Shown: positions 844 through 38,571 of the stretch, piece by piece
Layout: every line of letters begins with the position of its first letter
Position numbering within the stretch: the first letter of the stretch is position 1
Assembly (NCBI GenBank): GCA_964448115.1
Contig: CAYUVA010000029.1
Coordinates: 7,125 to 56,265 of the forward strand
From: an uncultured bacterium
Lineage (GTDB): Bacteria > CAYUVA01
Direction: 5' to 3'
DNA: 49,141 nucleotides
The notes under the pieces: generated by a model
The model's input: only the letters and a program-made list of their open reading frames with translations
Told to the model about the DNA's origin: nothing
Database searches by the model: none
Position numbers and translations under genes: made by a program

Positions 844-3800
844 ATGATCAAAGATCAGGTGGGCAATTATAAGATTCTCGCCAAGTTGGGCGAGGGGGGT
901 ATGGGCGCGGTTTACAAGGCTTACGACCTTGCAAATAAACGGACTGTAGCCCTGAAATTCGCTCTATCCAACATCATTTCCGAGGAGGTGGGTCTCAGGC
1001 GATTCGAGCGTGAGATCCGTGCAATCTCAAGACTCTCGCACCCAAATATCACCGCCGTCTATGACTCCGGTCGCTCTAATGGCAATATCTTTTATGCCAT
1101 GGAATTCATCGATGGCTCAGAGTTGAAGGATTACATAAGAACCGAGAATCTAAGTGAACAAGAGAGATTCGACCGCATATTCAACTCAACCGCACAGGTG
1201 CTAAGGGCACTCTCATATATACATTCACAGCGCATTATCCATCGTGATCTGAAGCCGAGCAATATTATGGTAGCTAAGGATCATATTGCCAAGATAATGG
1301 ACTTCGGGTTGGCCAAGGATATCGCCTCAAAAACCATGGTTACTGCAAGCGGTCTTGTGGTTGGCACAGCCGACTACATGTCTCCGGAGCAAGGAAGCGG
1401 AAAAACTTTGGATCAAAGAACCGATCTCTATAGCCTAGGAGTGATACTATATGAGATTTCCACTGGACGGAAGCCATTCAGCGGCGATGGACCTATACAA
1501 GTAATTATTAAACATATCCAGGAACCGCCGATACCGCCGAGAAAGTATAATTCTTCCATAACCCCAATGTTCGAGGAGATCATACTAAAGCTGATGGAGA
1601 AAAGCCCTATAGACAGGTTCCAGACTGCTGATGAAACTATCGAAGCTCTTAAGGAAGCTCATCAAGAGTTCCTTGAAGCCGGTAAGGCTAGCTCGCAGTT
1701 CGATCTGCCTGAACTGGAGGAGATCCAACCGCTGCTAAGACATAAGGATTATCTGTTCAAGGCACAGTTGGTGGGTCGAGACCATGAATTCGAGCAGCTT
1801 GTTGAGCTGGTCGATCAGCTAAAGAGCGGCTTCGGCAGCCTTGCTTTGCTCAAAGGTGAAGCCGGCGTGGGTAAGAGTCGCCTGGTCGAGGAGCTTCTGA
1901 CTCACTTGAAATTTACAGAGGTGAGGATCTTCAAGGGACATTGCTATGAGCAAAGGAACATACCATACCAGGTGTTCTCCCCCATCTTTGATCGCATAGC
2001 GGCTCATTTAAATCGCCGAGGAAGCAGCTATGCAGAGACGATCATCGGTAACACAGGTAAGATAATAGGCAGAATATTCCCTATTTTCAACGAGATACCT
2101 TATGTAAAGACCTTGCCAGAGCCGGCCGAGTTGCCGCCGGGAGAGGAAAAAATAAGATTACTGAGTGCTATTAAAAATCTATTCGAGCGACTGGCAGCCC
2201 AACAACCGTGTTTATTTTATCTCGATAACCTTCACTGGTCCGATGAGGGTAGCATCGAACTACTTGAATACCTGGTCGAGAACCTTCTGATTCCATACGA
2301 AAAAGCGCCCATAATGTTCATAGGCACAATACGCAGCGAAGAGCTATCCGAGAACAAGGCGCTGCAAAGATTCCAAGGGAAACTGCAACATCGCGAGAAT
2401 GTTGTCATGATGGAGATCAAACGACTGGAGCAAGACCAGGTAGGTCTTATATTGCAACAGATGCTCGGTATGAGCCATACGCCGACCCGGCTTACTCCAA
2501 AGATCTTTGCCGAGAGCGGGGGCAATCCATTCTTTATCGAGGAAGTGCTTAATGCCATGATCGAGGATGGGATACTATACCGGGAAGGCTCTCAGTGGCA
2601 GGTGCGAGTCGATAGCTATTCACAACTTATCATACCGTCATCGATAAAGGAGGTCTTGAAGAGACGATTTCGCAATCTTGGCGAAGAGGAGATGGATGTG
2701 CTCCGCTGGGCTGCTGTGATCGGCGAGGACTTCGAGTTCGATGTTCTGATGGAGGCTGGCGAGTTCGATGAAGACCTCCTACTCGATGTCATCGACCAGT
2801 TGCTCAAGTACAACCTCATCTTCGAGAAAAGCGTAGGGATGGTTGAGAAATATATCTTCTACCATGGAAAAATAAGGGATGTACTCTACGATGAGATCAG
2901 CCAAAGGCGTAAGAAACGACACCACCTAAAGATCGCTAATGCCATCGAAAAAATACACAAGAAAAGGCTGGATAAGTACATACAATCCCTGGCTTATCAC
3001 TACTACAATAGTCCTGATTTGGAGAAGGCATTTATCTACAGCAAGGATGCCGGGCTCAAAGCCAAACTGGTCTTCCAGAATGCAGAGGCGATCAATTTCT
3101 TCAATCAGGCGACGCAGATTTACCGAGAGCAGCACCAGGAGCTGAGTAAAGATTATTATCCTGAGTTCATTATCGTACTGACCGAACTGGGTGAGACGCA
3201 GAAGCTGACTGGCAGCTATGATGAAGCACTCGAAACCTACCAGGAGATGATCCGATGGGCGCAGGAACGCAACGACGAAAAGCAGGTCTCCATTGCCCTG
3301 GGAAATCTAGGTGATATCTACCAGATGAAGGGCGAGTTCAAGGAGGCAAAGGAAAGATTCAATGAATCCATAGAAATAGCAAAGCGATTAAACTACAAGC
3401 CAGGTATAGCCAAATGCCTCAATGGTATCGGCATCGTTCATCTGATGCAGGGAGACTATAATCAAGCTATGGATTGTTACAACCGCAGTTTAGAGATTGA
3501 AAAGCAGTTTGGCAATCAAAAGGCAATAGCTAAATTGTATAATTCCATAGGTGCTGTCCATTTTTACAAGCGTGCTTATGAACAAGCCCTCGATTGGTTT
3601 ACAAAAGCATACCAGATAAGAGAAGAATTAGGCGATAAATCAGATATGGCAACCTCAATAAATAACCTTGGCTCTGTGTATGACCTGCTGGGGCAAAAGA
3701 ATAAATCAATACCGCTTTACAAGGAGTCTCTCAAGATTGCTCAAGAAATCGGCAAAAAAAACGATGAAGCGATGTGCCTACACAATATCGGATACTATCA

Positions 3801-4695
3801 CTTCGAGCAATGCAATTACCAGGAAGCTCTGCGTTACTTCCAGCAGGCGTATAAGATAAAGAAAGAGTTGGGAAACAAAAAGGGACAGGCGATAACGCTT
3901 ACCCTTTTAGGATCTATATTTTATTTTCAAGCAAAATATGAACAGAGTCTTTCGTATTTTAATCAAGCCCTTGCTATAGACGAGGAGACCGAGGATAAAT
4001 TGGATATGATAAATAACATGATCAATCTTGGAGACCTGTTCAATACCATAGGAATGGTGGAAAAAGCCCTTCAGTATCACCAGATGGCGTGCGACCTGGC
4101 GGTCGGGATTGGTGATGTAGGAACCGAATCATCAGCTTTGGCTGGAAAAGCAAGGGATCTGGCATATATGAGAAAGCATCCCGAGGCACTGGAGGCGATA
4201 AATACGGCTATCGAGCTATCCAAGAACATCGGGATGAAGGATAAACTGGTAAGCGCTTGTTTGACATTGGCTGATATCAGACTTGAACTAGGTGAACCAG
4301 GAGATACCGGGGACTTGTGTGCACAATGTCTCGATCTTGCCAAAGAGGTGGGAGTGAGCTATCAATTGGTCGATCTTCACCTGACCTTGGCTAGGATAAT
4401 GCACCAAAAAAAGCAGTTCGAGGATGCAATCGAAGCCGCCAAAAGAGCGCTCTCCATGGCACAAGAACTGCAAATCCCAGAGTATTACTGGAAGAGCCAT
4501 CTGGTACTAGGAAATATTTATAGGGAAATACAAAAAAATGATGAGTGTCTAAAGGAATATAAGATGACCATGGAAGCCCTGGAGTCTATATACAAGATGT
4601 TCAAGGATAATGATCTAAAGAAGGCTTACATTAGCAGAAGAGATCGCCAGGAGGCTATCGAGATTATCCGTGAATTCGCAGGCAGGATGAGGTGA
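844..4695 (+). CDS. Serine/threonine protein kinase fused to an AAA+ (STAND-like) ATPase and a long TPR array (PknK-like architecture).
   Basis: Hanks kinase motifs: GEGGMGAVYKA, HRDLKPSNIM, DFGLAKD, SPEQ. Then a Walker A (GEAGVGKSRL) and a hhhhD Walker B (LFYLDNLHWSDEGS). Then more than 10 TPR-like repeats (e.g. AKCLNGIGIVHLMQGDYNQAMDCYNRSLEI). Confidence 0.9.
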   Translation: MIKDQVGNYKILAKLGEGGMGAVYKAYDLANKRTVALKFALSNIISEEVGLRRFEREIRAISRLSHPNITAVYDSGRSNGNIFYAMEFIDGSELKDYIRTENLSEQERFDRIFNSTAQVLRALSYIHSQRIIHRDLKPSNIMVAKDHIAKIMDFGLAKDIASKTMVTASGLVVGTADYMSPEQGSGKTLDQRTDLYSLGVILYEISTGRKPFSGDGPIQVIIKHIQEPPIPPRKYNSSITPMFEEIILKLMEKSPIDRFQTADETIEALKEAHQEFLEAGKASSQFDLPELEEIQPLLRHKDYLFKAQLVGRDHEFEQLVELVDQLKSGFGSLALLKGEAGVGKSRLVEELLTHLKFTEVRIFKGHCYEQRNIPYQVFSPIFDRIAAHLNRRGSSYAETIIGNTGKIIGRIFPIFNEIPYVKTLPEPAELPPGEEKIRLLSAIKNLFERLAAQQPCLFYLDNLHWSDEGSIELLEYLVENLLIPYEKAPIMFIGTIRSEELSENKALQRFQGKLQHRENVVMMEIKRLEQDQVGLILQQMLGMSHTPTRLTPKIFAESGGNPFFIEEVLNAMIEDGILYREGSQWQVRVDSYSQLIIPSSIKEVLKRRFRNLGEEEMDVLRWAAVIGEDFEFDVLMEAGEFDEDLLLDVIDQLLKYNLIFEKSVGMVEKYIFYHGKIRDVLYDEISQRRKKRHHLKIANAIEKIHKKRLDKYIQSLAYHYYNSPDLEKAFIYSKDAGLKAKLVFQNAEAINFFNQATQIYREQHQELSKDYYPEFIIVLTELGETQKLTGSYDEALETYQEMIRWAQERNDEKQVSIALGNLGDIYQMKGEFKEAKERFNESIEIAKRLNYKPGIAKCLNGIGIVHLMQGDYNQAMDCYNRSLEIEKQFGNQKAIAKLYNSIGAVHFYKRAYEQALDWFTKAYQIREELGDKSDMATSINNLGSVYDLLGQKNKSIPLYKESLKIAQEIGKKNDEAMCLHNIGYYHFEQCNYQEALRYFQQAYKIKKELGNKKGQAITLTLLGSIFYFQAKYEQSLSYFNQALAIDEETEDKLDMINNMINLGDLFNTIGMVEKALQYHQMACDLAVGIGDVGTESSALAGKARDLAYMRKHPEALEAINTAIELSKNIGMKDKLVSACLTLADIRLELGEPGDTGDLCAQCLDLAKEVGVSYQLVDLHLTLARIMHQKKQFEDAIEAAKRALSMAQELQIPEYYWKSHLVLGNIYREIQKNDECLKEYKMTMEALESIYKMFKDNDLKKAYISRRDRQEAIEIIREFAGRMR

Positions 4696-4733
4696 TGAAA
4701 TTACCCATTTTACGATGATGGGTCCTGGCGAAT

Positions 4734-5687
4734 TCACGGCTTATCTTCCCTGTGATAATGACAATTAAGTATGGCACAATGCATCCTGCATCGACGGGTA
4801 AAAAGACGCATCCTTTGTGCCCTCTCGGACTCCCAGATCTCTTTGATTGGTTGTTCAATGAAGTTTCCGACCGGCGCGGTATTAAAACAGAGCATCACCT
4901 CTCCATAGGGGCTGAATGACATATTGGACTCTCCAACCTGGCATTGGATCTTCTTACTAGGGGTAGGATCGCGAAAATAATCGATGAATCCTCGCAATTG
5001 CCCAACCGTATTACTTATGAAGTTTGTCTTTTTCTTTTCTTCGATAAGCCATTCGATGACTTGACTTAGATACTCCAGATCCTTTATCCATAATGGGCTT
5101 TTAAGATGCCACCTGGGATCGAATTTGGTGCCGAAGTTCCAGCAGAGCGCCTGAAAGCCAATATAATACCCACGCTCAATTGCCCACTCTACAAGCTCCT
5201 CGATATTATAGAGATTATATCTCATAATAACCGCTGCGATGGCGATGGTTATGCGATCCCGATACGGCTCCAGGTGCTGAAGTGCCTTTATCACCCTGTC
5301 GTAAGCTCCTTTACTTCCCTTGAGGCTATTAAATCTTTCAGGATCAAGCGTGTCCAGAGAGACATTCAGTGTATGCAGTCCGCTTTGAGATATCTCTTCA
5401 GACATCCTTGCATCTATGAGAGTCGCATTGGTCGTAACGAAGGTCTTTACTCCATACTCATTCGCCTTACTAATAATTTCCCATAGATCTCGCCGGATGA
5501 GCGGTTCCCCCCCGGCAAAATGAAGCTCGTAATACCCTAGCCAATCACCAAGCTGTCTGATTAGCTTGATCCATTGCTCTTTGGTAGCTTCCTTTCTCCC
5601 CTTTCTGGTTTTCCACAGATCACAATGCAAACAACGCAGGTTACAAAGGTCAGTAATTGAGGCGTGAAGGCTTTTCGGCTTAGGCAT
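4734..5687 (-). CDS. Radical SAM enzyme with a C-terminal SPASM/twitch-like Cys-rich domain.
   Basis: CX3CX2C motif (CNLRCLHC) near the N-terminus and a GGEPL motif. C-terminal cysteines: CQVG...LCFN...CRMHCAILNC. It lies 55 bp downstream of dnaE on the same strand. Confidence 0.8.
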   Translation of the reverse strand: MPKPKSLHASITDLCNLRCLHCDLWKTRKGRKEATKEQWIKLIRQLGDWLGYYELHFAGGEPLIRRDLWEIISKANEYGVKTFVTTNATLIDARMSEEISQSGLHTLNVSLDTLDPERFNSLKGSKGAYDRVIKALQHLEPYRDRITIAIAAVIMRYNLYNIEELVEWAIERGYYIGFQALCWNFGTKFDPRWHLKSPLWIKDLEYLSQVIEWLIEEKKKTNFISNTVGQLRGFIDYFRDPTPSKKIQCQVGESNMSFSPYGEVMLCFNTAPVGNFIEQPIKEIWESERAQRMRLFTRRCRMHCAILNCHYHREDKP

Positions 5688-5742
5688 AATTCATCCTGTA
5701 CTTATATATCTCGATTCTTCAAGTATAGTTTAAGACCGCTTG

Positions 5743-8700
5743 TTATGCAAAACGAAGGCAGTTATCTCCCAACAGCTTCTCTAGATCATTAACCAGCTCA
5801 TCTTCAGGACATGATCTCAAATTGCTATCGATAAGAGCCAGCACTCCCTCTCTTCCGTAGCGTCTGGGGATCTCCACCTCGAAAAAAACCCTGCAATCAC
5901 CAGGGTGAGCGTAGAGGATCTCGTTTATTCTGTTTATCATCCTGTGATCAGTGAGCATAGCGTTGAGACTGATGGTCATTGCACTCGAGCTTTTTCGAAG
6001 CTCCTCCAAAGGGGTTATTCTAAATGCCCTAAGAGATAATTTATCATCCTTCTTATCCAGCTTACCATTTACCAGAACGCAAAGATTCTCCTCCAACATA
6101 TTCCTGATTTCCTCAAATAGCCTCGATGGAACGATAACCTCAATTAGACCCACCTGGTCTTCCAAAGTAATTCGAGCGTACATATAGTTATTTTTCTTCG
6201 ATTTTCTGCGAACGACCTTGTTTATGACCCCGGCAATCGCCACCTCGGATTCATCTGAGAGTTCGTTTAATACGGCAATGTCAGCGTTTGTAAAATACTT
6301 CAACTCCCGTTCGAACCTATCCAGGGGATGCCCTGTAATATAGAAACCGAGGGTCTGCTTTTCATAAGATGTCATTTCCCGCTGGGTAAACTCTGGCGCC
6401 TCGGGAAGGCTCTTGTCAACGCTTGCCAGGCTTCCATTGGGATCGAAATCAAAGATGCTCAGATGCTTTTTCTCTTTTCCTTTGGCCATCTCCTGAGCCA
6501 ACCCCAAAGCCCTGTCGAGCACCATCATCTTCTGCTGTCTGTTCCCTTCAAGTTCATCCAATGCCCCGCTTTTAATCAGGTTTTCAAGTATCTTGGCATT
6601 AAGATGTGTAGCGGTCATCCGCTCGCATAGCTCAAATATGGAGCTGAATTCACCCCGATTTTTCCTCTCCTCGATGAGCTTCTCCGCTGTAGCCTGTCCA
6701 ATGTTTCTGATAGCGCTCAAGCCGAAGTATATCTTTTTCCCCTCTGGAGCAAAGCGAACATCGCACTTATTGATATTAGGGGGTAACACCTCAAGCCCCA
6801 TCCGTTTGCACTCATTGATATATTTAACCAGGTCCTCGATGCTGTCCAGGTAGCTGTTCAGATGGCAAGCCATATATTCAGATGGGAAGTAGGTCTTCAG
6901 GTAAGCGGTCTGGTAGGCGACCAGGGCATAGGCAGCGGCGTGGGACTTATTGAAGCCATACCCGGCGAACTTCACAATCTGTTCCCAGAGCACTTTTGCT
7001 GATGTCTCGGTCATACCTCTTCTAACTGCTCCGCTCACAAATTTCTCTTTGTGTCGCTCCATGATCTCAGGCTTCTTTTTTCCCATAGCCTTGCGCAGCT
7101 CATCTGCCTCGACCAGGTTATAGCCAGCAATGCGGTTGGCGATACGCATCACCTGCTCCTGGTAAACCATTATTCCATAAGTTTCCTTTAGGATATCCTC
7201 CATTCGTTGATCCAAGTAGGTTATCTTCTCCTTACCATGCTTACGAGCCGCATAATCAGGGATAAGATCCATGGGACCGGGTCTATAAAGAGCCACCATT
7301 GCAATCAAATCCTCGAATTTATCTATTCCACAAAGACGAAGGGTCTTCCTCATTCCGGCACTCTCAAACTGGAAGACGCCAACCGTTTCACCTTTGGAGA
7401 ACAGTTGCAGGGTCTTTGTATCATCCAGTGGTATTTTCTGAGGATCAATTTTGATATTATGTAGATCCATTATCATTTTTACTGTCTCATCGATTACCGT
7501 AAGGGTTCTCAAGCCTAAAAAATCTGCTTTGAGCAAGCCTAGCGCCTCTATATCTTTCATAGTGAATTGGGTAACGCTAGCTTCCTTGTTATCCTGATCT
7601 CTTACCAAGGGAATGCTACCGATTAAGGACTGGTCTGAAATGACTATTCCAGCAGCGTGTTTAGACTGATTGGATGGCAAACCCTCCAATACAGCACTTA
7701 CCTCTAGTAGTTTCTTAATCTTGGGTTCCCTCTGCTGGTATTCTCTAAGCTCTGGCACCTCTTTAATTGCCTTCTCCACAGTCATATCCTTATCCGGACT
7801 GATCAGTTTCGTTATCTTATTCAACTCTTGAAATGGGATACCCATCGCATTGCCCACCTTTTTCATCACTGCCCTGGTCTTAAGCGTGTTAAAGGTGATG
7901 ATATTAGCGACCCGATCCTCTCCATACTTGCCTGCTACATAATCGATCACCTCATCCCTACGCACCTTGCAAAAATCGATATCAATATCAGGCATACTCT
8001 TTCTGCCTTGATTCAAGAAACGTTCAAAGATGAGATCGTATTTTATAGGATCTATATCGGTAATCCCTAGCGAGTAGGCTACCAGGCTGCCGGCTGCCGA
8101 TCCTCTGCCTGGACCGACCGGAATCTTTTTAGATTTAGCGTATGAGACAAAGTCCCACACGATCAGGAAATAGCCCTCAAATCCCATATCCTTTATGATC
8201 TCTATCTCATGATTCAGCCGTTCCTTATATTGATTATACATAGATCCGGGGATCTTGCCTGTATCGAATTTAGCCTTCAATCCCTCTTGAACTTCGTGCT
8301 CGAAATACTCAGTCAGGCTATAACCTTCTGGTGGTTCATAATGCGGTAGCTTCGGTTTGCCGAACTCGAACTCAACATGGCATCGTTTGGCAATGGAAAG
8401 CGTATTGCTGATGGCATCCGGGTGCTCATCGAACAGCCTGTTCATCTCCTCGGCGGTTTTGAGATAAAACTGGGTTGATTGGAAGCGGAGGCGATTGGGA
8501 TCATCGAACTGCTTCTGGGTCTGTATGCTCAACAGAATATCGTGTGCTTCGGCATCTTCAGGCATAATATAGTGGCAGTCGTTGGTCGCCACCTTCTGTA
8601 TGGAAAGGTCATTAGCCAGCTTTATCAGCTTCGGTAAGACCTTCTTCTGATCGGTCAAGCCGTGATCCATAAGCTCAATGAAGAAATTGTCCCTGCCAAA

Positions 8701-33279: not shown

Positions 33280-33828
33280 TTGGTACATGCCATCGGAATG
33301 CTGGAGTTGAGGAGCATCGCCAGGGGGATCGAGGCAACCGATGCTATGGTCAAGGCTGCACAGGTCTCCTTGCTGCGAAGTGCTCCCATCTGTTCCGGTA
33401 AGTACCTCATCCTGGTCGGAGGACTGGTCGCTGATGTGAAAAGCGCTATGGCTGATGGCGAGGAAGTAGCTGAATATAGCGTGGTCGATAAGCTGATCAT
33501 CCCCAATATCCACCAGGACATCTTCCCTGCCCTGACTTTCACCACCCAGATTGGAGAGATCGATGCTTTAGGGATCATCGAGGCATTCTCGGCATCATCG
33601 ACCATCATCGGCGCTGACCTGTCGGCAAAGGCAGCCAAGGTGCAACTGATACAGATAAGGCTAGCCAACGGCATCGGCGGCAAGGGATACTTCACTCTGA
33701 CCGGCGATGTTGGCGCAGTGCGGGCAGCGGTCTCGGCTGCATCGGAAGCGCTGTCAGCGCAAGGGATGCTGGTCGAGGCGGTGGTCATACCCCAGCCACA
33801 CCATGATATATCGCCTTTTTTAATATGA
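33280..33828 (+). CDS. BMC-T tandem-domain microcompartment shell protein, PduT-like.
   Basis: Two BMC (PF00936-type) domains: AIGMLELRSIARGIEATDAMVKAA...VVIPNIHQD and ALGIIEAFSASSTIIGADLSAKAA...GDVGAVRAAVSAASEA...VVIPQPHHD. Cys in APICSG is at the position of the PduT Fe-S ligand. Confidence 0.85.
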   Translation: MVHAIGMLELRSIARGIEATDAMVKAAQVSLLRSAPICSGKYLILVGGLVADVKSAMADGEEVAEYSVVDKLIIPNIHQDIFPALTFTTQIGEIDALGIIEAFSASSTIIGADLSAKAAKVQLIQIRLANGIGGKGYFTLTGDVGAVRAAVSAASEALSAQGMLVEAVVIPQPHHDISPFLI

Positions 33829-33854
33829 GGCATGGGGATTGATAGTCTTTGAAC

Positions 33855-34045
33855 CACAAAGACACAAAGGCACAAAGAAGAGGGTGATACCGTGATACCG
33901 AGCTACCGTGATACCGTGAATGAGGCTCTTTCCTCGCATCTTGCACCTCACCCCACTTTGCGTCTTTGCCTTTTTCCGTCTGTTTCCTTCCTTAATATTC
34001 TTTGCGTCTTTGCGTCTTTGCGTGATCCTCTTTCATCTCCCTTCA
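33855..34045. promoter_or_regulatory. Structured repeat-rich intergenic region between BMC-T and the vertex genes: an imperfect 23-bp inverted repeat, a GTGATACC triplet and CTTTGCGT direct repeats.
   Basis: CACAAAGACACAAAGGCACAAAG at 33855-33877 against the reverse complement of CTTTGCGTCTTTGCGTCTTTGCGTG at 33999-34023. GTGATACC occurs three times at 33884-33917. CTTTGCGTCTTTGCC at 33955-33969. Confidence 0.4.
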
Positions 34046-34057
34046 AACTAAAAAACT

Positions 34058-34363
34058 ATGCCGTTTTATCTAGCTAGAATCATTGGATGCCTGGTAGCGA
34101 CCCGAAAGGAGCCGGGCTTGGAGGGCAAGAAGCTGCTCCTCGTGCAGCCGATAGATGCCTCTGGCAAGGACAAAGGCACACCGATAGTCGCCACCGATGC
34201 AGTCGGCGCCGGCGTCGATGAGATCGTGATCATAGTCGATGGGGGCAAGGAGGCGGGTTTCGCCTTTTACCCGCAGCATGTCCCCTCAGATGCGAGCGTG
34301 GTCGGCATAGTTGATGATGTCTTCACCTTCAAACAGAATAATAAGCAGACAAAGGAGCCTTGA
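34058..34363 (+). CDS. BMC vertex pentamer protein (EutN/PduN/CcmL family, BMV).
   Basis: MPFYLARIIGCLVATRKEPGLEGKKLLLVQP...GAGVDEIVII matches the EutN consensus (.VIGTVVSTQK.P.L.G.KLLLVQ). Confidence 0.85.
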   Translation: MPFYLARIIGCLVATRKEPGLEGKKLLLVQPIDASGKDKGTPIVATDAVGAGVDEIVIIVDGGKEAGFAFYPQHVPSDASVVGIVDDVFTFKQNNKQTKEP

Positions 34364-34367
34364 TGTT

Positions 34368-34649
34368 ATGTTCATAGCCAAGGTCATCGGCAATGTAACC
34401 GCCACCCAGAAGCACTCTGCTTACAAGGGCAGAAAGCTGCTCCAGGTACAGCCGGTGGATCTATCAGGCGAGCCGATGGGGAGGGATTACCTGGCGATCG
34501 ACCTTGTGGATGCAGGGATCGGGGATACGGTTATTCTGACCATTGAAGGCTCATCGGCTATGTCAGCGTTGGGTGATCCTCATGCTCCAGCCAATGCCAT
34601 TATCATCGCGGTCGTGGATGAGATTGACATTTATGGTAATAATGAATAA
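34368..34649 (+). CDS. Second BMC vertex pentamer protein (EutN/PduN family). The start is trimmed to the internal Met preceded by an AAGGAG RBS.
   Basis: MFIAKVIGNVTATQKHSAYKGRKLLQVQPVD...DAGIGDTVIL. The track ORF starts at 34311, but that would overlap the upstream gene. AAGGAG lies at about 34354. Confidence 0.8.
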   Translation: MFIAKVIGNVTATQKHSAYKGRKLLQVQPVDLSGEPMGRDYLAIDLVDAGIGDTVILTIEGSSAMSALGDPHAPANAIIIAVVDEIDIYGNNE

Positions 34650-34664
34650 TATTATAATAATTAT

Positions 34665-36929
34665 TTAATAATTATTGCCAAATAATTTTTTAATTTCTTG
34701 TTCCATTTCATTAAATTCTTTCTCCGTTTCAACTTTCATTTCTTCTCTAGCTTCAATGAAAATTTTTATTAATTCTTTCTTAAAATCTTCTCTATTAAAT
34801 GCTTCTTCTAATTCTAAAATCATTTTATCAATTGTAAAGCCTAATACTATAGAACTTAAAGTGCCACCAACAATGGCGCCTGCTGCTGTCCCAGCTCCTG
34901 GAATAACAGACCCAATCCCACCTCCAATTAATGCAGCTAAACCTTTTCCCATGGCTTTCTTTCCTAAAATTTTTGTAAACGCCTTTGCGGCGGCTTTTAT
35001 TGTGCCTTTTGCTGCAATTTTTGATACTATTTTCTTTGTAATAATTGCCGTGAATATTCCGCCGGTTGCAGCACCACCTACACTAGCACCTATATTATAT
35101 TTCGTCATATTAAAATTTTCTAATGTAATTATTATATTTTCCATACTACGATCTACAATAATATCACGATTTGGATAGGAAATATCTATTTTATATTTTT
35201 TAACAATTTTCATTATATCTTTCTCATATTTGTTAATTAACTTATTTATTTTATTACAATATTCTATATATTTTTCATTATTTATTGCATCGATATTATG
35301 CTCTTTTAATTTTTCCTTAATAATATCTTTTAGTTTAGCTTCAATATATTCATTTAATTTACCTTGGAACATATTTATTATGCGCATATATTCTGCTGGC
35401 AAAGAGTAATACCAGTTTAAAAAAGGATCTATACCTTCTATCGCAATATCAAAAGTTTTATCTATAAATATATTTTTATGCTCTTGATATTTAAAATTAA
35501 TACGCTCAATTTCTTTTTCATAAAATTTATTTATCTTATTTATTTTATTAATACCATCTTGGTTAATATATATATCATTTCCATTTATAATAATTCTAAA
35601 AGCATGTTTTATTCCTTTTTCAATGTACTCTCTTTTTTCTTTAGAACTTTCGAAATATTTCCTGGTTTCCAACAGAAAATTTAATCCTCCCAACAAAGGA
35701 ATATAAATAAATATTACACTAAAAACTAAAAATAGCGTGCAGATAAAAATTTTATTTTTAGAAATAGGAGGTGGAATATCCTCGCGACCACGAGAAAATT
35801 CAAAGATTCTTCCATACTCATTCCAGGGTATAAGCAAAAATAAATATAAAAAACATGCAATACTAAAAAGCGGTAAATTAAATAAAAATATTATACCTAA
35901 TTTTAATAATATCCTCAATTTCTTTGTATCATTTTTATTCATGGATTGATACTTTATATGATTTTTAATAAAATTAATAGAATAATCTTCAATTGCAACC
36001 TTATAAGAATAAATGTATGAAATTTCTTTTATTAATTTCATAGAATGCATATTATCTACTAATTCTTTCTTTTTACTAATTACTTCTTCTAACGAATTAT
36101 ATGATGGAACTGGTTTTAGTATAGGGATAAAAATTACACATAATAAAGAAGCAATTATTGGAGTAAATCCCAGCGCCAAGGATATTGGATAATAATAAGA
36201 AAGATATTGCTGAGTTTCTTTTTTAACAAGCTTTCTAAAAATTGAAAAAACAAGGTAAAATATCGGTGCAACTGAAAAAATAATCAACCATTCATATATA
36301 TTATAAAATTGAAATTGTATTACTAATAGCCATGACATTGCATGTGCTATAATAATCCAAATAAATATTCTAAGAATGGTTCCAGAAAATAATCGATTTA
36401 TAATGCCTTCGGAATTAAAAGATTGTAGAAATTTCAACCGTCTAATTGTTGATCTATATAGCAAAGATAAAAATATTGATAAAGTTAGTAGGATAAGCAA
36501 TAAAATTTGAGAAATAATTGCAAATTCAGAATAAGTTAAATAAACTAAAATAATTATTAATAAGGTAAAAATAATTATCTTTACCATATATCTCCAAAAC
36601 AAATTACTTGTCTTAAATTCATTTACCATGGACTGTTTAGACTTCAAACTATCATTTGGTGCTAGTTTATCTTCATGCAAAATATTCCCTGTTTCATTGA
36701 TAGTTTGTTTTACTTGCTTTGTGGCTTTTTTTCTGAAAAATAGTATATATAAAATAATAAAAATAAATATCCATAATATAAATACCACATAAGGGGAAAA
36801 ATCAGAATTGTATAAAATAGCAAATGAAATGAATAATATAAAAGTAGAAACCAAACTTATGATTAATGCAATTATCGATAATAACAAAATCAATAAAAAA
36901 CTCTTAATCCATTTAAATAATTTTTTCAT
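34665..36929 (-). CDS. Large polytopic membrane protein encoded in an AT-rich (~25% GC) island. Its C-terminus is a Gly/Ala/Lys-rich glycine-zipper region.
   Basis: The ORF is 754 aa (2265 bp), rich in K/I/N/F/Y, with more than 10 hydrophobic segments. C-terminus GASVGGAATGGIFTAIITKK...GGGIGSVIPGAGTAAGAIVGGTLSSIVLG. The composition contrasts sharply with flanking DNA. Confidence 0.55.
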   Translation of the reverse strand: MKKLFKWIKSFLLILLLSIIALIISLVSTFILFISFAILYNSDFSPYVVFILWIFIFIILYILFFRKKATKQVKQTINETGNILHEDKLAPNDSLKSKQSMVNEFKTSNLFWRYMVKIIIFTLLIIILVYLTYSEFAIISQILLLILLTLSIFLSLLYRSTIRRLKFLQSFNSEGIINRLFSGTILRIFIWIIIAHAMSWLLVIQFQFYNIYEWLIIFSVAPIFYLVFSIFRKLVKKETQQYLSYYYPISLALGFTPIIASLLCVIFIPILKPVPSYNSLEEVISKKKELVDNMHSMKLIKEISYIYSYKVAIEDYSINFIKNHIKYQSMNKNDTKKLRILLKLGIIFLFNLPLFSIACFLYLFLLIPWNEYGRIFEFSRGREDIPPPISKNKIFICTLFLVFSVIFIYIPLLGGLNFLLETRKYFESSKEKREYIEKGIKHAFRIIINGNDIYINQDGINKINKINKFYEKEIERINFKYQEHKNIFIDKTFDIAIEGIDPFLNWYYSLPAEYMRIINMFQGKLNEYIEAKLKDIIKEKLKEHNIDAINNEKYIEYCNKINKLINKYEKDIMKIVKKYKIDISYPNRDIIVDRSMENIIITLENFNMTKYNIGASVGGAATGGIFTAIITKKIVSKIAAKGTIKAAAKAFTKILGKKAMGKGLAALIGGGIGSVIPGAGTAAGAIVGGTLSSIVLGFTIDKMILELEEAFNREDFKKELIKIFIEAREEMKVETEKEFNEMEQEIKKLFGNNY

Positions 36930-37818
36930 TCAAATTCTCCAAATAATATAACCATATCCAATTTTTCCCAACTTCCATCATCCAGATAAAAAATATGTTG
37001 TGTCATATAGTTACTGTGTTTTTTCCTACTTATCATCCTCATCATCCTCGAAAATATATTTGACCCTAATGTCAAATAACATCTTATCTTCAATAGAATT
37101 ATGATCCCATATCCTTTTTATAATGTCAATACCCTGAAGTTAACTGAAATGATCTGAGGTGAACTGCGCTGTAAGGTAAGAAATTAGGTTCTCACTATCC
37201 CTTTCTCTTAGCCATTAGTGTTATAGGTGAGCCGAAAAGCCTGGTCAACCCCATACTACCAAGCAAGCCCTCGACTCTGCGGGTGAAGCCAGGATTGTTC
37301 AGCTTGCGGTGCAGCTTGAAGGGGAGCACCAGCTCCTTGCTGTAGGCGATAAGCTCGAAGCCACAATCCTCGAGCAGCGGGATAATATTATTTCAATTCC
37401 GAGCAGGTTGCTTGAGAGCAAAAAATTCACAAAAAAGACACAAATGTTAAAACCTGAGGCGGCGAAGCTGCAATAAAGTATGCTAATCCAGCATGAAGAT
37501 TATGACGCGCGAAAGTGCGTTATCAGTTTAGTGAAGTAATCTAAGTTATGCCTCTGTTGGGTTTTATAATGTCTATACCTATTCCAAGCATTACCGGCAA
37601 AGGTATCAAGCTTCTGCTGTAGTGATAACTCGCACATTTATAAAATAGAGAATTCATGTTTTTCAATAACTTACAGCTCTCAAATGTCAAACTCGGGTGG
37701 AACATTTTACTAAATTACGGGATCGAGCGATCTATCGCGTGTAGTTTATTCGTATATTAAGAGACTCCAATAGACATCAAACGCCTAAATAGCTTTTTTA
37801 GGGCTGAAAAGCCCCTCA

Positions 37819-38571
37819 TCAACCCAGGTCGCCGAAGCGATTCTGTAGAATTGCGGTCAAGGTTATTGCCGCGGTCTCTGCCCGTAATATCCTCGATCCC
37901 AGGTTTACCGCCTCGAATCCATTTTTGAAAGCAGCCGCTATCTCACTGGCAGAAAAATCCCCCTCGGGACCGATTGCTACTAGGCATGAATTGGGAGCTT
38001 GCATCCTGGTTAGAGCTTCATTCAAAGATTGACCGGCAGTAGCTGTTGCAATCAGTTTCAGCTCGATCGACTGGGATTCCTCCAGGAAGTGCTCCCAGCT
38101 TATCGCCTTACGCAATCTCGGAATTGTCGCCCTGCCGCACTGCCTGGTAGCCTCGATGATGATCCGCTCCCAGCGCCTACCCTTAGCCTCCTTAAATCCT
38201 CGCCCGGAAGGTACCTGCGAGTTATCCGTGATTACTGGGATCAGCTCGCTTATTCCCAGTTCGACACACCTTTGGATGATCATCTCCATTTTAGTAGCCT
38301 TTAGCACTGCTTGTGCCAGAATCAGCCTTAGCGGCGATTCGGGGATCGGCTCCAGGTTATCAATAATCCTTCCATAGGCGGTGTGTTTGCCGGTTTTAGT
38401 GAGCCTGACAAGATACTCCTTGCCTTTGCCATCGAATACGCAGACCATATCCCCAGCCTTCAAGTGGAGCACCTTGCTCAGATGCCAGACTGCTGGAGGG
38501 GTGAACTCGATGATTCCCTTCTCGATGCGATGTCCGGGAGTATAGAATCTATATTTGGGTCTTCTATCCAT
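37819..38571 (-). CDS. rsmE: 16S rRNA (uracil1498-N3)-methyltransferase.
   Basis: N-terminus RFYTPGH...I.L....WHL.KVLHLKAGD is typical of RsmE. C-terminal SPOUT motif LVAIGPEGDFSASE. Confidence 0.8.
   Translation of the reverse strand: MDRRPKYRFYTPGHRIEKGIIEFTPPAVWHLSKVLHLKAGDMVCVFDGKGKEYLVRLTKTGKHTAYGRIIDNLEPIPESPLRLILAQAVLKATKMEMIIQRCVELGISELIPVITDNSQVPSGRGFKEAKGRRWERIIIEATRQCGRATIPRLRKAISWEHFLEESQSIELKLIATATAGQSLNEALTRMQAPNSCLVAIGPEGDFSASEIAAAFKNGFEAVNLGSRILRAETAAITLTAILQNRFGDLG

Follow-up and report, generated by a model that had tools for sequence, protein, structure and literature searches.

A single-gene, AT-rich island beside a microcompartment operon and the unnamed family of predicted membrane proteins to which its product belongs

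Bacterial dynamin-like proteins (e.g. LeoA/LeoB/LeoBC, BDLP1 and DynA) have a trunk or middle domain, a glycine-rich paddle and a C-terminal helix; in LeoA, the glycine-rich hydrophobic paddle is located at the trunk's tip, with a hinge at Gly274 (PMC4159319). These elements are weakly resembled by a family of bacterial proteins that differ from the dynamin-like proteins in being without a GTPase, in being fused to a seven-transmembrane (7-TM) domain and in having no paired dynamin-like genes nearby. The present work concerns one protein of this family, of 754 residues and with a 9-TM instead of a 7-TM domain, which is encoded on the minus strand, at 34665..36929, of a 49,141-nucleotide stretch of DNA from an uncultured bacterium (CAYUVA01; positions 7,125 to 56,265 of contig CAYUVA010000029.1, assembly GCA_964448115.1). 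The whole stretch is referred to as the window in the following, and positions are counted from its first letter. The gene fills an island of about 25% GC, and the best explanation of the locus as a whole, to which a probability of about 0.6 is assigned, is that a single gene has been imported, that it is an intact member of the unnamed family and, as the weaker part of the explanation, that it encodes a resident membrane protein.

Other described proteins share parts of this architecture. Phage tail tape-measure proteins (PHROG 167, 1047 and 794) show, like the family, a coiled coil, after which come a Lys-rich helix and a hydrophobic hairpin with a glycine zipper, but the family differs from them in that the match is limited to the hydrophobic segment, in that the window gene is outside any tail-gene module, and in having no phage genes in the neighbourhood explored in the window, no relatives in the phage collections searched and no structural match in BFVD. 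The ~40-residue GxxxGxxxG hairpins of Gly-zipper_Omp (PF13488), Gly-zipper_YMGG (PF13441), DUF1269 (PF06897) and the NCBIfam YiaD model are also like that of the family; however, the matches fall below the gathering thresholds, the proteins concerned are short lipoproteins or 2-TM proteins rather than polytopic proteins of 600-750 residues, and the family zipper has a conserved P-x2-G turn of its own, unlike these small families. Finally, the motif VPGxGxxxGAxxG is common to the family zipper and to the DUF697 (YcjF-like) domain of HSR1-type GTPases, as seen over 16 columns (hhalign) with the DUF697 protein of one Desulfovibrionaceae metagenome-assembled genome (MAG; locus L003), but this is a match at the level of the motif only (probability 4.6%), the adjacency of the two genes is seen in one lineage only and no Pfam DUF697 match is found for the family.

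As for the island itself, classical genomic islands show the same abrupt shift of composition and codon usage towards AT and the same insertion between an accessory operon and housekeeping genes, but the island described here differs from them in consisting of one 2.5-kb gene, with no integrase, tRNA target, flanking repeats or insertion sequence (IS) element in the window.

Composition, edges and origin of the island

In 400-bp segments, the GC content is 0.52-0.55 up to 34599, 0.19-0.27 across 35000-37199 and again above 0.42 from 37000-37399. Steps of 50 bp place the edges at ~34630 and ~37125, with the transition taking place within ~50 bp, and the sole content of the ~2.5-kb low-GC zone so delimited (~34630-37125) is the gene for the 754-residue protein with a leader of ~200 bp. 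The open reading frame (ORF) has a GC content of 24.8% against 47.8% in the remainder of the window; island-free segments of the same length (2265 bp) have a mean of 47.8% (s.d. 2.2, minimum 43.3%), and all other 1-kb stretches of the 49-kb window are at 0.388 or above. The abrupt fall to ~25% GC over ~2.4 kb reported in the initial annotation is reproduced by these scans, the flanking value being corrected from 50% to ~48%.

By codon position, the GC content of the island gene is 0.31/0.26/0.18, as compared with 0.54/0.38/0.57 in 25 host ORFs, whose third-position value (GC3) is 0.567 ± 0.042 (s.d.) with a minimum of 0.498. The dinucleotide-signature distance δ* (×1000) is 168 for the island and 43.6 ± 15.7, with a maximum of 95, for the other 2.5-kb segments, so that GC, GC3 and dinucleotide signature of the island are all 8-9 s.d. 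off the host values. The bias extends to the protein, which contains 16.6% Ile, 10.9% Leu, 10.3% Lys and 7.7% Phe (57% for I, L, K, F, N and Y together) and which, with a FYMINK content of 48% vs a host mean of 28%, is the most AT-driven among 167 proteins. Both of the compositional checks suggested in the initial annotation agree: the sliding GC scan gives a sharp single dip, and the oligonucleotide analysis, carried out as a dinucleotide signature, sets the island outside the host range.

The single minus-strand ORF with K/I/N/F/Y bias that had been described as filling the island is confirmed as an intact frame of 754 codons (34665..36929), which starts with ATG and has its stop codon at 34665-34667. 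At the base composition of the island, a stop codon is expected every 11 codons and the probability of 754 open codons is ~6e-31; this value, together with a GGAG ribosome-binding site (RBS; 36937-36940, minus strand) 7 nt before the ATG at 36929 and with the retention of 38 out of 53 positions whose conservation in the family is 80% or more, among which all the zipper glycines and the zipper proline, indicates that the gene is real.

Two readings that dispense with transfer can be weighed against these data. According to one, the island is an assembly chimera, in which DNA of an AT-rich organism has been joined to a host contig; indeed, the contig is metagenome-assembled and the gene is found on one contig from one sample only. 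However, in the Logan assembly of SRR15988951, produced by a second assembler, a 3258-bp contig is identical to window positions 34001-37258 and extends from the EutN genes of host composition across the entire island into 130 bp of sequence past it, where the GC content is normal. Both edges of the island are, therefore, reproduced. A chimera would also require two joins that precisely frame one intact gene with its RBS, and is regarded as very improbable, even if the Logan contigs break 130-220 bp past the upstream edge of the island (a second contig starts at 37347 and runs through rsmE and folC, past 40986, to about 41,230). According to the other reading, the gene is native and its AT-richness is kept by selection or by local mutation bias. 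An abundance of I, F, L and Y does incline membrane proteins to AT-rich codons, and the absence of integrase, tRNA and flanking repeats would be in line with a native gene, but a GC3 of 0.18 in a host with the values given above is not explicable by amino-acid content, the other membrane proteins encoded in the window show no GC depression, and the edges are abrupt. Furthermore, family members elsewhere mostly match or slightly exceed the GC content of their flanks: over the 71 loci with enough flanking sequence, the median gene-minus-flank difference is +0.008, so that the family appears compositionally native in most of its hosts. Only seven of the 71 genes are more than 5 GC points below their flanks and four more than 10 points, the window copy being the most extreme at -23 points. 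A native origin of the AT-rich gene is, therefore, hardly tenable.

The acquisition of a single gene by horizontal transfer from an unsampled, very AT-rich donor has, instead, good support, a horizontal origin having been suggested in the initial annotation already: composition, codon use and dinucleotide signature are outside the host range, and similar dips occur in unrelated genomes. Dips confined to the family gene are found in a Desulfovibrionaceae MAG of 66% GC (gene 33-35%), in two Methylococcales, and in one each of Syntrophobacteraceae, Bacteroidia and an alphaproteobacterial MAG. The FYMINK content of 48% points to a long evolution in a genome of ~25% GC or lower, and the fact that the composition has not drifted toward that of the host indicates that the transfer is recent enough. 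In the absence of integrase, tRNA and flanking repeats, illegitimate recombination is the likely route of entry, and the AT-rich last codons of the neighbouring EutN gene place the junction probably inside the 3′ end of that gene.

Several observations count against an import, or at least leave its history incomplete. No relative closer than ~30% identity is available and, in a neighbour-joining tree, the window copy is on a long isolated branch, so that the donor is unsampled. For the host RsmE protein, the nearest relatives show an identity of 44% (protein database) and 35% (metagenome contigs), which leaves no close host relative for a comparison with an empty site. There is no tRNA in the window, no repeats bracket 34630-37125, and no mobility gene was found, the one-gene island having no room for a recombinase gene. 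Finally, the Logan contigs are interrupted over the 88 bp from 37259 to 37346, and the link between the island and rsmE is given by the deposited assembly alone; this short sequence may have further copies in the genome or metagenome, or its coverage may be poor.

As to the AT-rich copies in other genomes, the family gene of the alphaproteobacterial MAG (OZ253470.1; locus L035, 6830-10421) lies between ORFs that, by eye, are IS6-type and IS256-type transposase-like; the second is an IS256-type fragment, and the arrangement, which counts in favour of transfer, resembles a composite transposon. In a Methylococcaceae MAG (locus L017, 7908-9803), the island copy is split in two ORFs of 426 and 186 residues, either because it is a frameshifted pseudogene or because of a sequencing error.

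The family, its predicted architecture and its distribution

Sequence comparison assigns the window gene, as a divergent member with an extension at the N-terminus, to a large family of predicted membrane proteins that is uncharacterised. A phmmer search of 1.84 billion cluster representatives yields 821 matches at E ≤ 1e-3, 456 at E ≤ 1e-10 and 121 at E ≤ 1e-30. Nearly all of them are 590-650 residues long and align end to end with residues ~105-735 of the query, and the closest is ~30% identical to it. A word-indexed search of 5.8 billion proteins finds, in contrast to these hundreds of matches, the query itself and one relative of 614 residues only, which has the common motif (GIDPFLNWYYSLPAEYMRIINMFQG vs GVDLYLDWYFSLPGEYTRLYNMAQG) and a glycine-rich tail; a profile of 95 sequences used in the word-indexed search again retrieves just the query and one relative. 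The protein appears as an orphan in such searches because words of biased composition swamped the list of candidates.

The family was defined from the phmmer matches, and an alignment of 95 members provides its motifs, namely P-x2-E-Y-R-R-x-F in a loop of the core, NVDxYLDWYYSLxxEYxRI as signature of the helical domain, K-x3-K-x3-K...AAKA in the Lys-rich helix and G-x3-G-S-V-V-P-G-x-G-T-A-x-G-A-x2-G-G in the hairpin. The window protein shows the full-length similarity, the LDWYYSL motif, the zipper hairpin in its context and the 7-TM core, and the conserved motifs argue against a full-length alignment driven merely by composition.

The family has no entry in the resources searched. The window protein gives noise only, far below threshold, with Pfam, NCBIfam and PADLOC (Pex24p, Gemini_mov, BcsG), and ten members compared with Pfam and ten with NCBIfam return no family, besides sub-threshold matches to small glycine-zipper domains. 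With the family profile, the sequences of the PDB yield GCN4 coiled coils only; Foldseek finds no match at E ≤ 1e-3 in the PDB or BFVD, and the TM core has no likeness, in fold or sequence, to any transporter or channel in the PDB, Pfam or NCBIfam. The named members of the clusters are all ‘hypothetical proteins’, and a literature search retrieved no description of such a protein. One member of 1057 residues (P0108, locus L010, 639-3812) consists of a family protein of ~600 residues fused to ~450 C-terminal residues of Sel1 repeats, with a gene for a WYL regulator two genes downstream.

The model obtained with AlphaFold2 (AF2) from the family alignment is all helical (mean pLDDT 78, pTM 0.68), with low confidence in the glycine-rich stretches, and, along with hydropathy, it agrees with the many TM helices noted initially in predicting ~9 of them, while the Gly/Ala-rich C-terminal region covers residues 614-632 and 661-700. 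The N-terminal extension (residues 1-105; 36615..36929, minus strand, as for all the following segments) contains two extra predicted TM helices (~14-38 and ~47-65) and a basic linker, is modelled with pLDDT 51-76, and lies outside the family alignments, which start at query residues ~85-206. An internal in-frame Met101 would give a protein of family-typical length, but has no RBS-like sequence ahead of it. The 7-TM core follows (residues 110-422; 35664..36602), as judged by AF2, hydropathy and conservation, with the mean pLDDT of ten-residue blocks mostly at 84-97 over residues 110-420 and at 75-86 toward the C-terminal end. A predicted cytoplasmic loop of the core carries the motif P-x2-E-Y-x-R (with E371 and R374), and its conserved residues Y158, W214, P368, E371 and R374 are kept in the window protein, few polar residues being conserved within the TM helices of the family. 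In the short loops of the core, the family-wide means of Lys and Arg are 4.6 (L4-5), 1.6 (L6-7) and 3.2 (L8-9) as opposed to 0.3 (L3-4) and 0.1 (L5-6), a distribution that, by the positive-inside rule, fits an N-in/C-out orientation.

The C-terminal half begins with a predicted all-helical domain (residues 425-600; 35130..35657), with long helices at 457-498, 525-543 and 546-579 and with the most conserved motif of the family, LNWYYSLPAEYMR (residues 504-516; 35382..35420; consensus LDWYYSLxxEYxR), whose columns are invariant or nearly so: L504, Y507, Y508, S509, L510, E513, Y514 and R516 are kept, and D505, conserved at 95%, is replaced by Asn. It continues with a first Gly/Ala-rich hydrophobic segment, GASVGGAATGGIFTAIIT (residues 614-632; 35034..35090; low pLDDT), and with a Lys-rich, putatively amphipathic helix (residues 633-660; 34950..35033), in which K641, K645, K653 and K658 are conserved and for which the family means are 6.2 Lys/Arg and 0.1 Asp/Glu. 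The putative glycine-zipper hairpin (residues 661-700; 34830..34949) has the pattern G669-x3-G673-x3-P677-x2-G680-x3-G684-x3-G688, whose glycines are conserved in 97-99% of the members and P677 in 94%. The zipper tail proposed in the initial annotation is, thus, confirmed, and no other feature of the family C-terminus is conserved as well. A charged C-terminal helix, supported by conservation and AF2 (residues 701-754; 34668..34829; D701, E708, E709 and R713; consensus VDxxLLxLEExxxRExF), ends the protein.

A motif-guided scan (pattern [YF]LD[WS]YYSLx[AG]) of one genome per species of the GTDB confirmed 262 loci, so that the family is present in at least 262 species; taxonomy and gene context were derived from 80 of these loci. 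About half are from Nitrosomonas and the rest mainly from Desulfobacterota, with Methylococcales, other Proteobacteria, Marinimicrobia, Omnitrophota, Planctomycetota, Bacteroidia and Acidobacteriota also represented. The window genome is not among the 80, which would be explained by its FLNWYYSL, which does not fit the pattern. In Nitrosomonas, the gene is at one syntenic site and has native composition, and the proteins form one clade. In ~30 of the Nitrosomonas loci, the gene is followed on the same strand, after a gap of ~260 bp, by one whose product looks by eye like a Kef/YbaL-type cation : proton antiporter; in some Desulfobacteraceae, a Met-aminopeptidase gene, also identified by eye, is a neighbour. 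In non-Nitrosomonas loci, the gene is alone among unrelated genes, occasionally near genes for WYL regulators, Cas1/Cas2 and antitoxins. No relatives were found by tblastn with the query against plasmids or with one member (P0003) against phages and plasmids (INPHARED, PLSDB), nor by a motif scan of IMG/VR.

Some of the surveyed loci deserve description in their own right. In the Desulfovibrionaceae MAG mentioned above for its DUF697 protein (L003, 6971-9681; contig CAZGAH010000032.1), two genes for HSR1-type GTPases, one with the DUF697 domain and both of native GC, are directly upstream of the family gene. A second low-GC block (1100-6900; 30-40% in a genome of ~66% GC) contains four genes, of whose products one is DZR/Sel1-like and the other three (720, 347 and 248 residues) are without a Pfam match; it adjoins a WYL/WCX regulator gene, is a few kb from the AT-rich family gene and may be another imported cassette. 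In Nitrosomonas (L076, 4923-7295, and nine other loci), a conserved upstream neighbour of ~790 residues, not homologous to the family, also carries a glycine-zipper membrane segment, GKFAGIFAAIGLAIGAIGTAIASVVTGF.

Resemblances of the C-terminal half and possible functions

The likeness to dynamin-like proteins emerges from the PADLOC models, among which LeoB is matched by 42 of 75 members (best E 6.6e-7), LeoBC by 10 and LeoA by three. The matched stretch of ~70-95 residues falls within positions 415-510 of the 568 of LeoB, with the C-terminal helix of the family forming part of the region aligned to LeoB ~445-510, and in one member residues 348-610 align to LeoA 270-506. We take LeoB 415-510 as the likely membrane-binding region and LeoA 270-506 as the likely trunk, the description of these proteins (PMC4159319) giving no residue numbers for the LeoB domains. 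The top Foldseek match of the family is BDLP, although it is not significant. When the C-terminal 200 residues of five members are used, all five match LeoB (1.6e-5 to 2.9e-4), whereas none of five global shuffles matches anything; with shuffling in blocks of 20 residues, none of 10 matches LeoB and one matches LeoBC at 2e-4. These controls indicate that composition does not account for the whole similarity, although the margin is not wide; it is weak and partly compositional, and the window protein itself has no Leo match. The family, which has no GTPase domain, is not a dynamin and has, at most, a paddle-type module that is shared with dynamin-like proteins or has converged on theirs. The same region resembles the hydrophobic segments of tape-measure PHROGs, with E-values of 1e-7 to 1e-10 for several members and of ~6e-3 for the window protein.

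On these grounds, a resident membrane protein with a dynamin-paddle-like C-terminal half and without a GTPase is put forward as a tentative proposal. The 7-TM core would anchor the protein in the inner membrane, while the C-terminal half would act as a middle domain, a membrane-binding paddle and a C-terminal helix in the absence of a GTPase; the zipper hairpin, dipping into the bilayer or packed inside it, would mediate oligomerization. As the outcome, the membrane would be shaped, tethered or stabilized, or a channel would be lined, and the product would not be a secreted toxin. Some findings sit uneasily with this proposal. By the positive-inside rule, the C-terminal domain would not be cytoplasmic, unless the chain returns across the membrane at residues 601-632; no GTPase domain (Dynamin_N or other Pfam) is found in the query or in ten members, nor a Walker A motif in the query; and, when the ±5 neighbours were clustered over ~78 loci, lineage-specific synteny only and no family-wide partner emerged.

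The initial annotation had compared the Gly/Ala-rich tail with bacteriocin-like or pore-forming peptides, a comparison that is not supported, the zipper being one module of a conserved, ~600-residue polytopic family. A bacteriocin is rejected on account of the size of 754 residues and the polytopic nature of the protein, its architecture, the gene context and the vertical conservation in Nitrosomonas. Among the neighbours scanned with Pfam, which cover part of the window, are genes for bacterial microcompartment (BMC) shell proteins, ADH, peptidase and housekeeping functions; genes for an ABC exporter, for immunity or for a peptidase-C39 protein were not seen, and a leader motif was not specifically searched for.

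The closest tenable form of the initial comparison, namely that the protein is a membrane-permeabilizing effector (abortive-infection, defence or toxin), in which zipper hairpins oligomerize to a pore when triggered and which travels as a small accessory cassette, draws on the fact that glycine zippers are typical of membrane-inserting, pore-forming modules, as in the type VI secretion effector Tde1, whose glycine zipper is required for translocation (PMC10240207). The match of the family C-terminus with the hydrophobic segments of tape-measure proteins, the existence of AT-rich single-gene islands, the occasional vicinity of WYL regulators, Cas1/Cas2 and antitoxins, and the fact that the only PADLOC matches, the Leo proteins, are among defence or candidate-defence models would be in keeping with it. 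However, no model of PADLOC-DB 2.0 matches as a family member, since the query has no match and the other members match over ~70-95 residues only; no relatives were found in INPHARED, PLSDB or IMG/VR; no conserved immunity, export or sensor partner is found; and the single syntenic site with native composition in Nitrosomonas suggests a physiological, rather than an accessory, role, so that an effector is judged quite unlikely. A channel for ions or small solutes, or a transport-associated protein, in which the 7-TM core conducts or senses and the zipper packs an oligomeric channel, would account for the high conservation and the confident modelling of the polytopic core. Glycine zippers commonly line or pack channels, and the Kef/YbaL-like neighbour in Nitrosomonas would point in the same direction, but this neighbour is confined to one clade, and with the gap noted above may reflect mere synteny. 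Moreover, the lack of a transporter or channel match and the scarcity of conserved polar residues inside the TM helices make a channel doubtful. With respect to the microcompartment operon, the island gene is convergent with it and foreign to it, and no functional link is, therefore, assumed.

Surroundings of the gene and wider significance

The low-GC leader (36930..37125, minus strand), delimited by the 50-bp steps and the upstream sequence, is part of the island. It contains a promoter-like TTGACA-17-(TG)GATCAT (37129-37101, minus strand), found in a consensus scan whose matches are not above shuffle expectation; its RNA folds no better than shuffles (z = -0.66), and Rfam gives no credible match over 33500-38500, with one match below threshold at E 0.83. 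A small ORF of uncertain reality in the same leader (36926..37093, minus strand) counts 55 residues from a TTG, or 36 by the call of the Logan assembly; with its TGA stop, it overlaps the ATG of the main gene by 4 nt (ATGA). With no Pfam match and no database support, it may be spurious, or may encode a leader peptide that is translationally coupled.

The initial annotation had placed the island between the BMC genes and a non-coding stretch, and both neighbours are as described. On the low-coordinate side are found genes for a PduS-like protein, a tandem-BMC shell protein and two EutN/CcmL proteins. The latter, encoding pentamer proteins, are in tandem on the plus strand (34058-34363 and 34311-34649), the listed ORFs overlapping by 53 nt; the second probably starts at an ATG near 34369 (MFIAKVIGNV...). 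This second gene (34311..34649, plus strand; Pfam EutN_CcmL, 4e-25) is the last of the microcompartment operon and is convergent with the island gene, 15 bp separating the two stop codons. Its final codons (...YGNNE*) are already AT-rich, with a GC content of 0.10 at 34625-34674, and the last four may derive from inserted DNA.

On the opposite side, ~690 bp with no ORF longer than 55 residues (37130-37818) precede rsmE, which is followed by folC, rsfS, a cytidylyltransferase-fold gene, presumably nadD-like, and a metH-like gene; no plasmid match was found for 37100-37830. Six-frame translation reveals in this stretch a C-terminal gene fragment of ~65 residues, IIPLLEDCGFELIAYSKELVLPFKLHRKLNNPGFTRRVEGLL... 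(37195..37389, minus strand; GC 56-62%), which has no Pfam match, resembles by eye the tail of a methyltransferase and probably is what remains of a host gene that was disrupted; as the rest of the stretch has no ORF above 55 residues, the arrival of the island may have destroyed a host gene. A direct repeat of 18 bp, TTTTATAATGTC[A/T]ATACC, is present at two places only within the window (chance expectation 0.00-0.09 matches), i.e. exactly at the upstream edge of the island (37116..37133, plus strand, with TTGACA on the minus strand) and 446 bp from there (37562..37579, plus strand). The two copies enclose 446 bp of the adjoining ORF-free stretch and not the island, and could be an operator pair, the remnant of another insertion or an att-like duplication.

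For the host genome, the finding is modest, consisting of one imported accessory membrane protein beside a microcompartment operon. Its wider value lies in the family, which is widespread and lacks annotation and whose 7-TM core, predicted with confidence, has no solved structural relative, and in the caution that proteins of extreme composition can appear as orphans in word-indexed searches despite having hundreds of detectable relatives. A broader possibility, which is put forward as unlikely, is that the family represents a hitherto unrecognised group of relatives of the dynamin module of trunk, paddle and C-terminal helix, without a GTPase and with an integral anchor; its 7-TM domain would keep a membrane-inserting glycine-zipper paddle at the bilayer, and membranes would be shaped, tethered or repaired without nucleotide hydrolysis. 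A secondary novelty, held with the same reserve, would be that a bare single-gene AT-rich cassette moves repeatedly into GC-richer genomes of unrelated phyla. Nitrosomonas and Methylococcales build stacked internal membranes and, if the family shapes membranes, a role in membrane architecture would be testable in these organisms. If true, a GTPase-less, dynamin-paddle-like module would represent a novel bacterial means of manipulating membranes.

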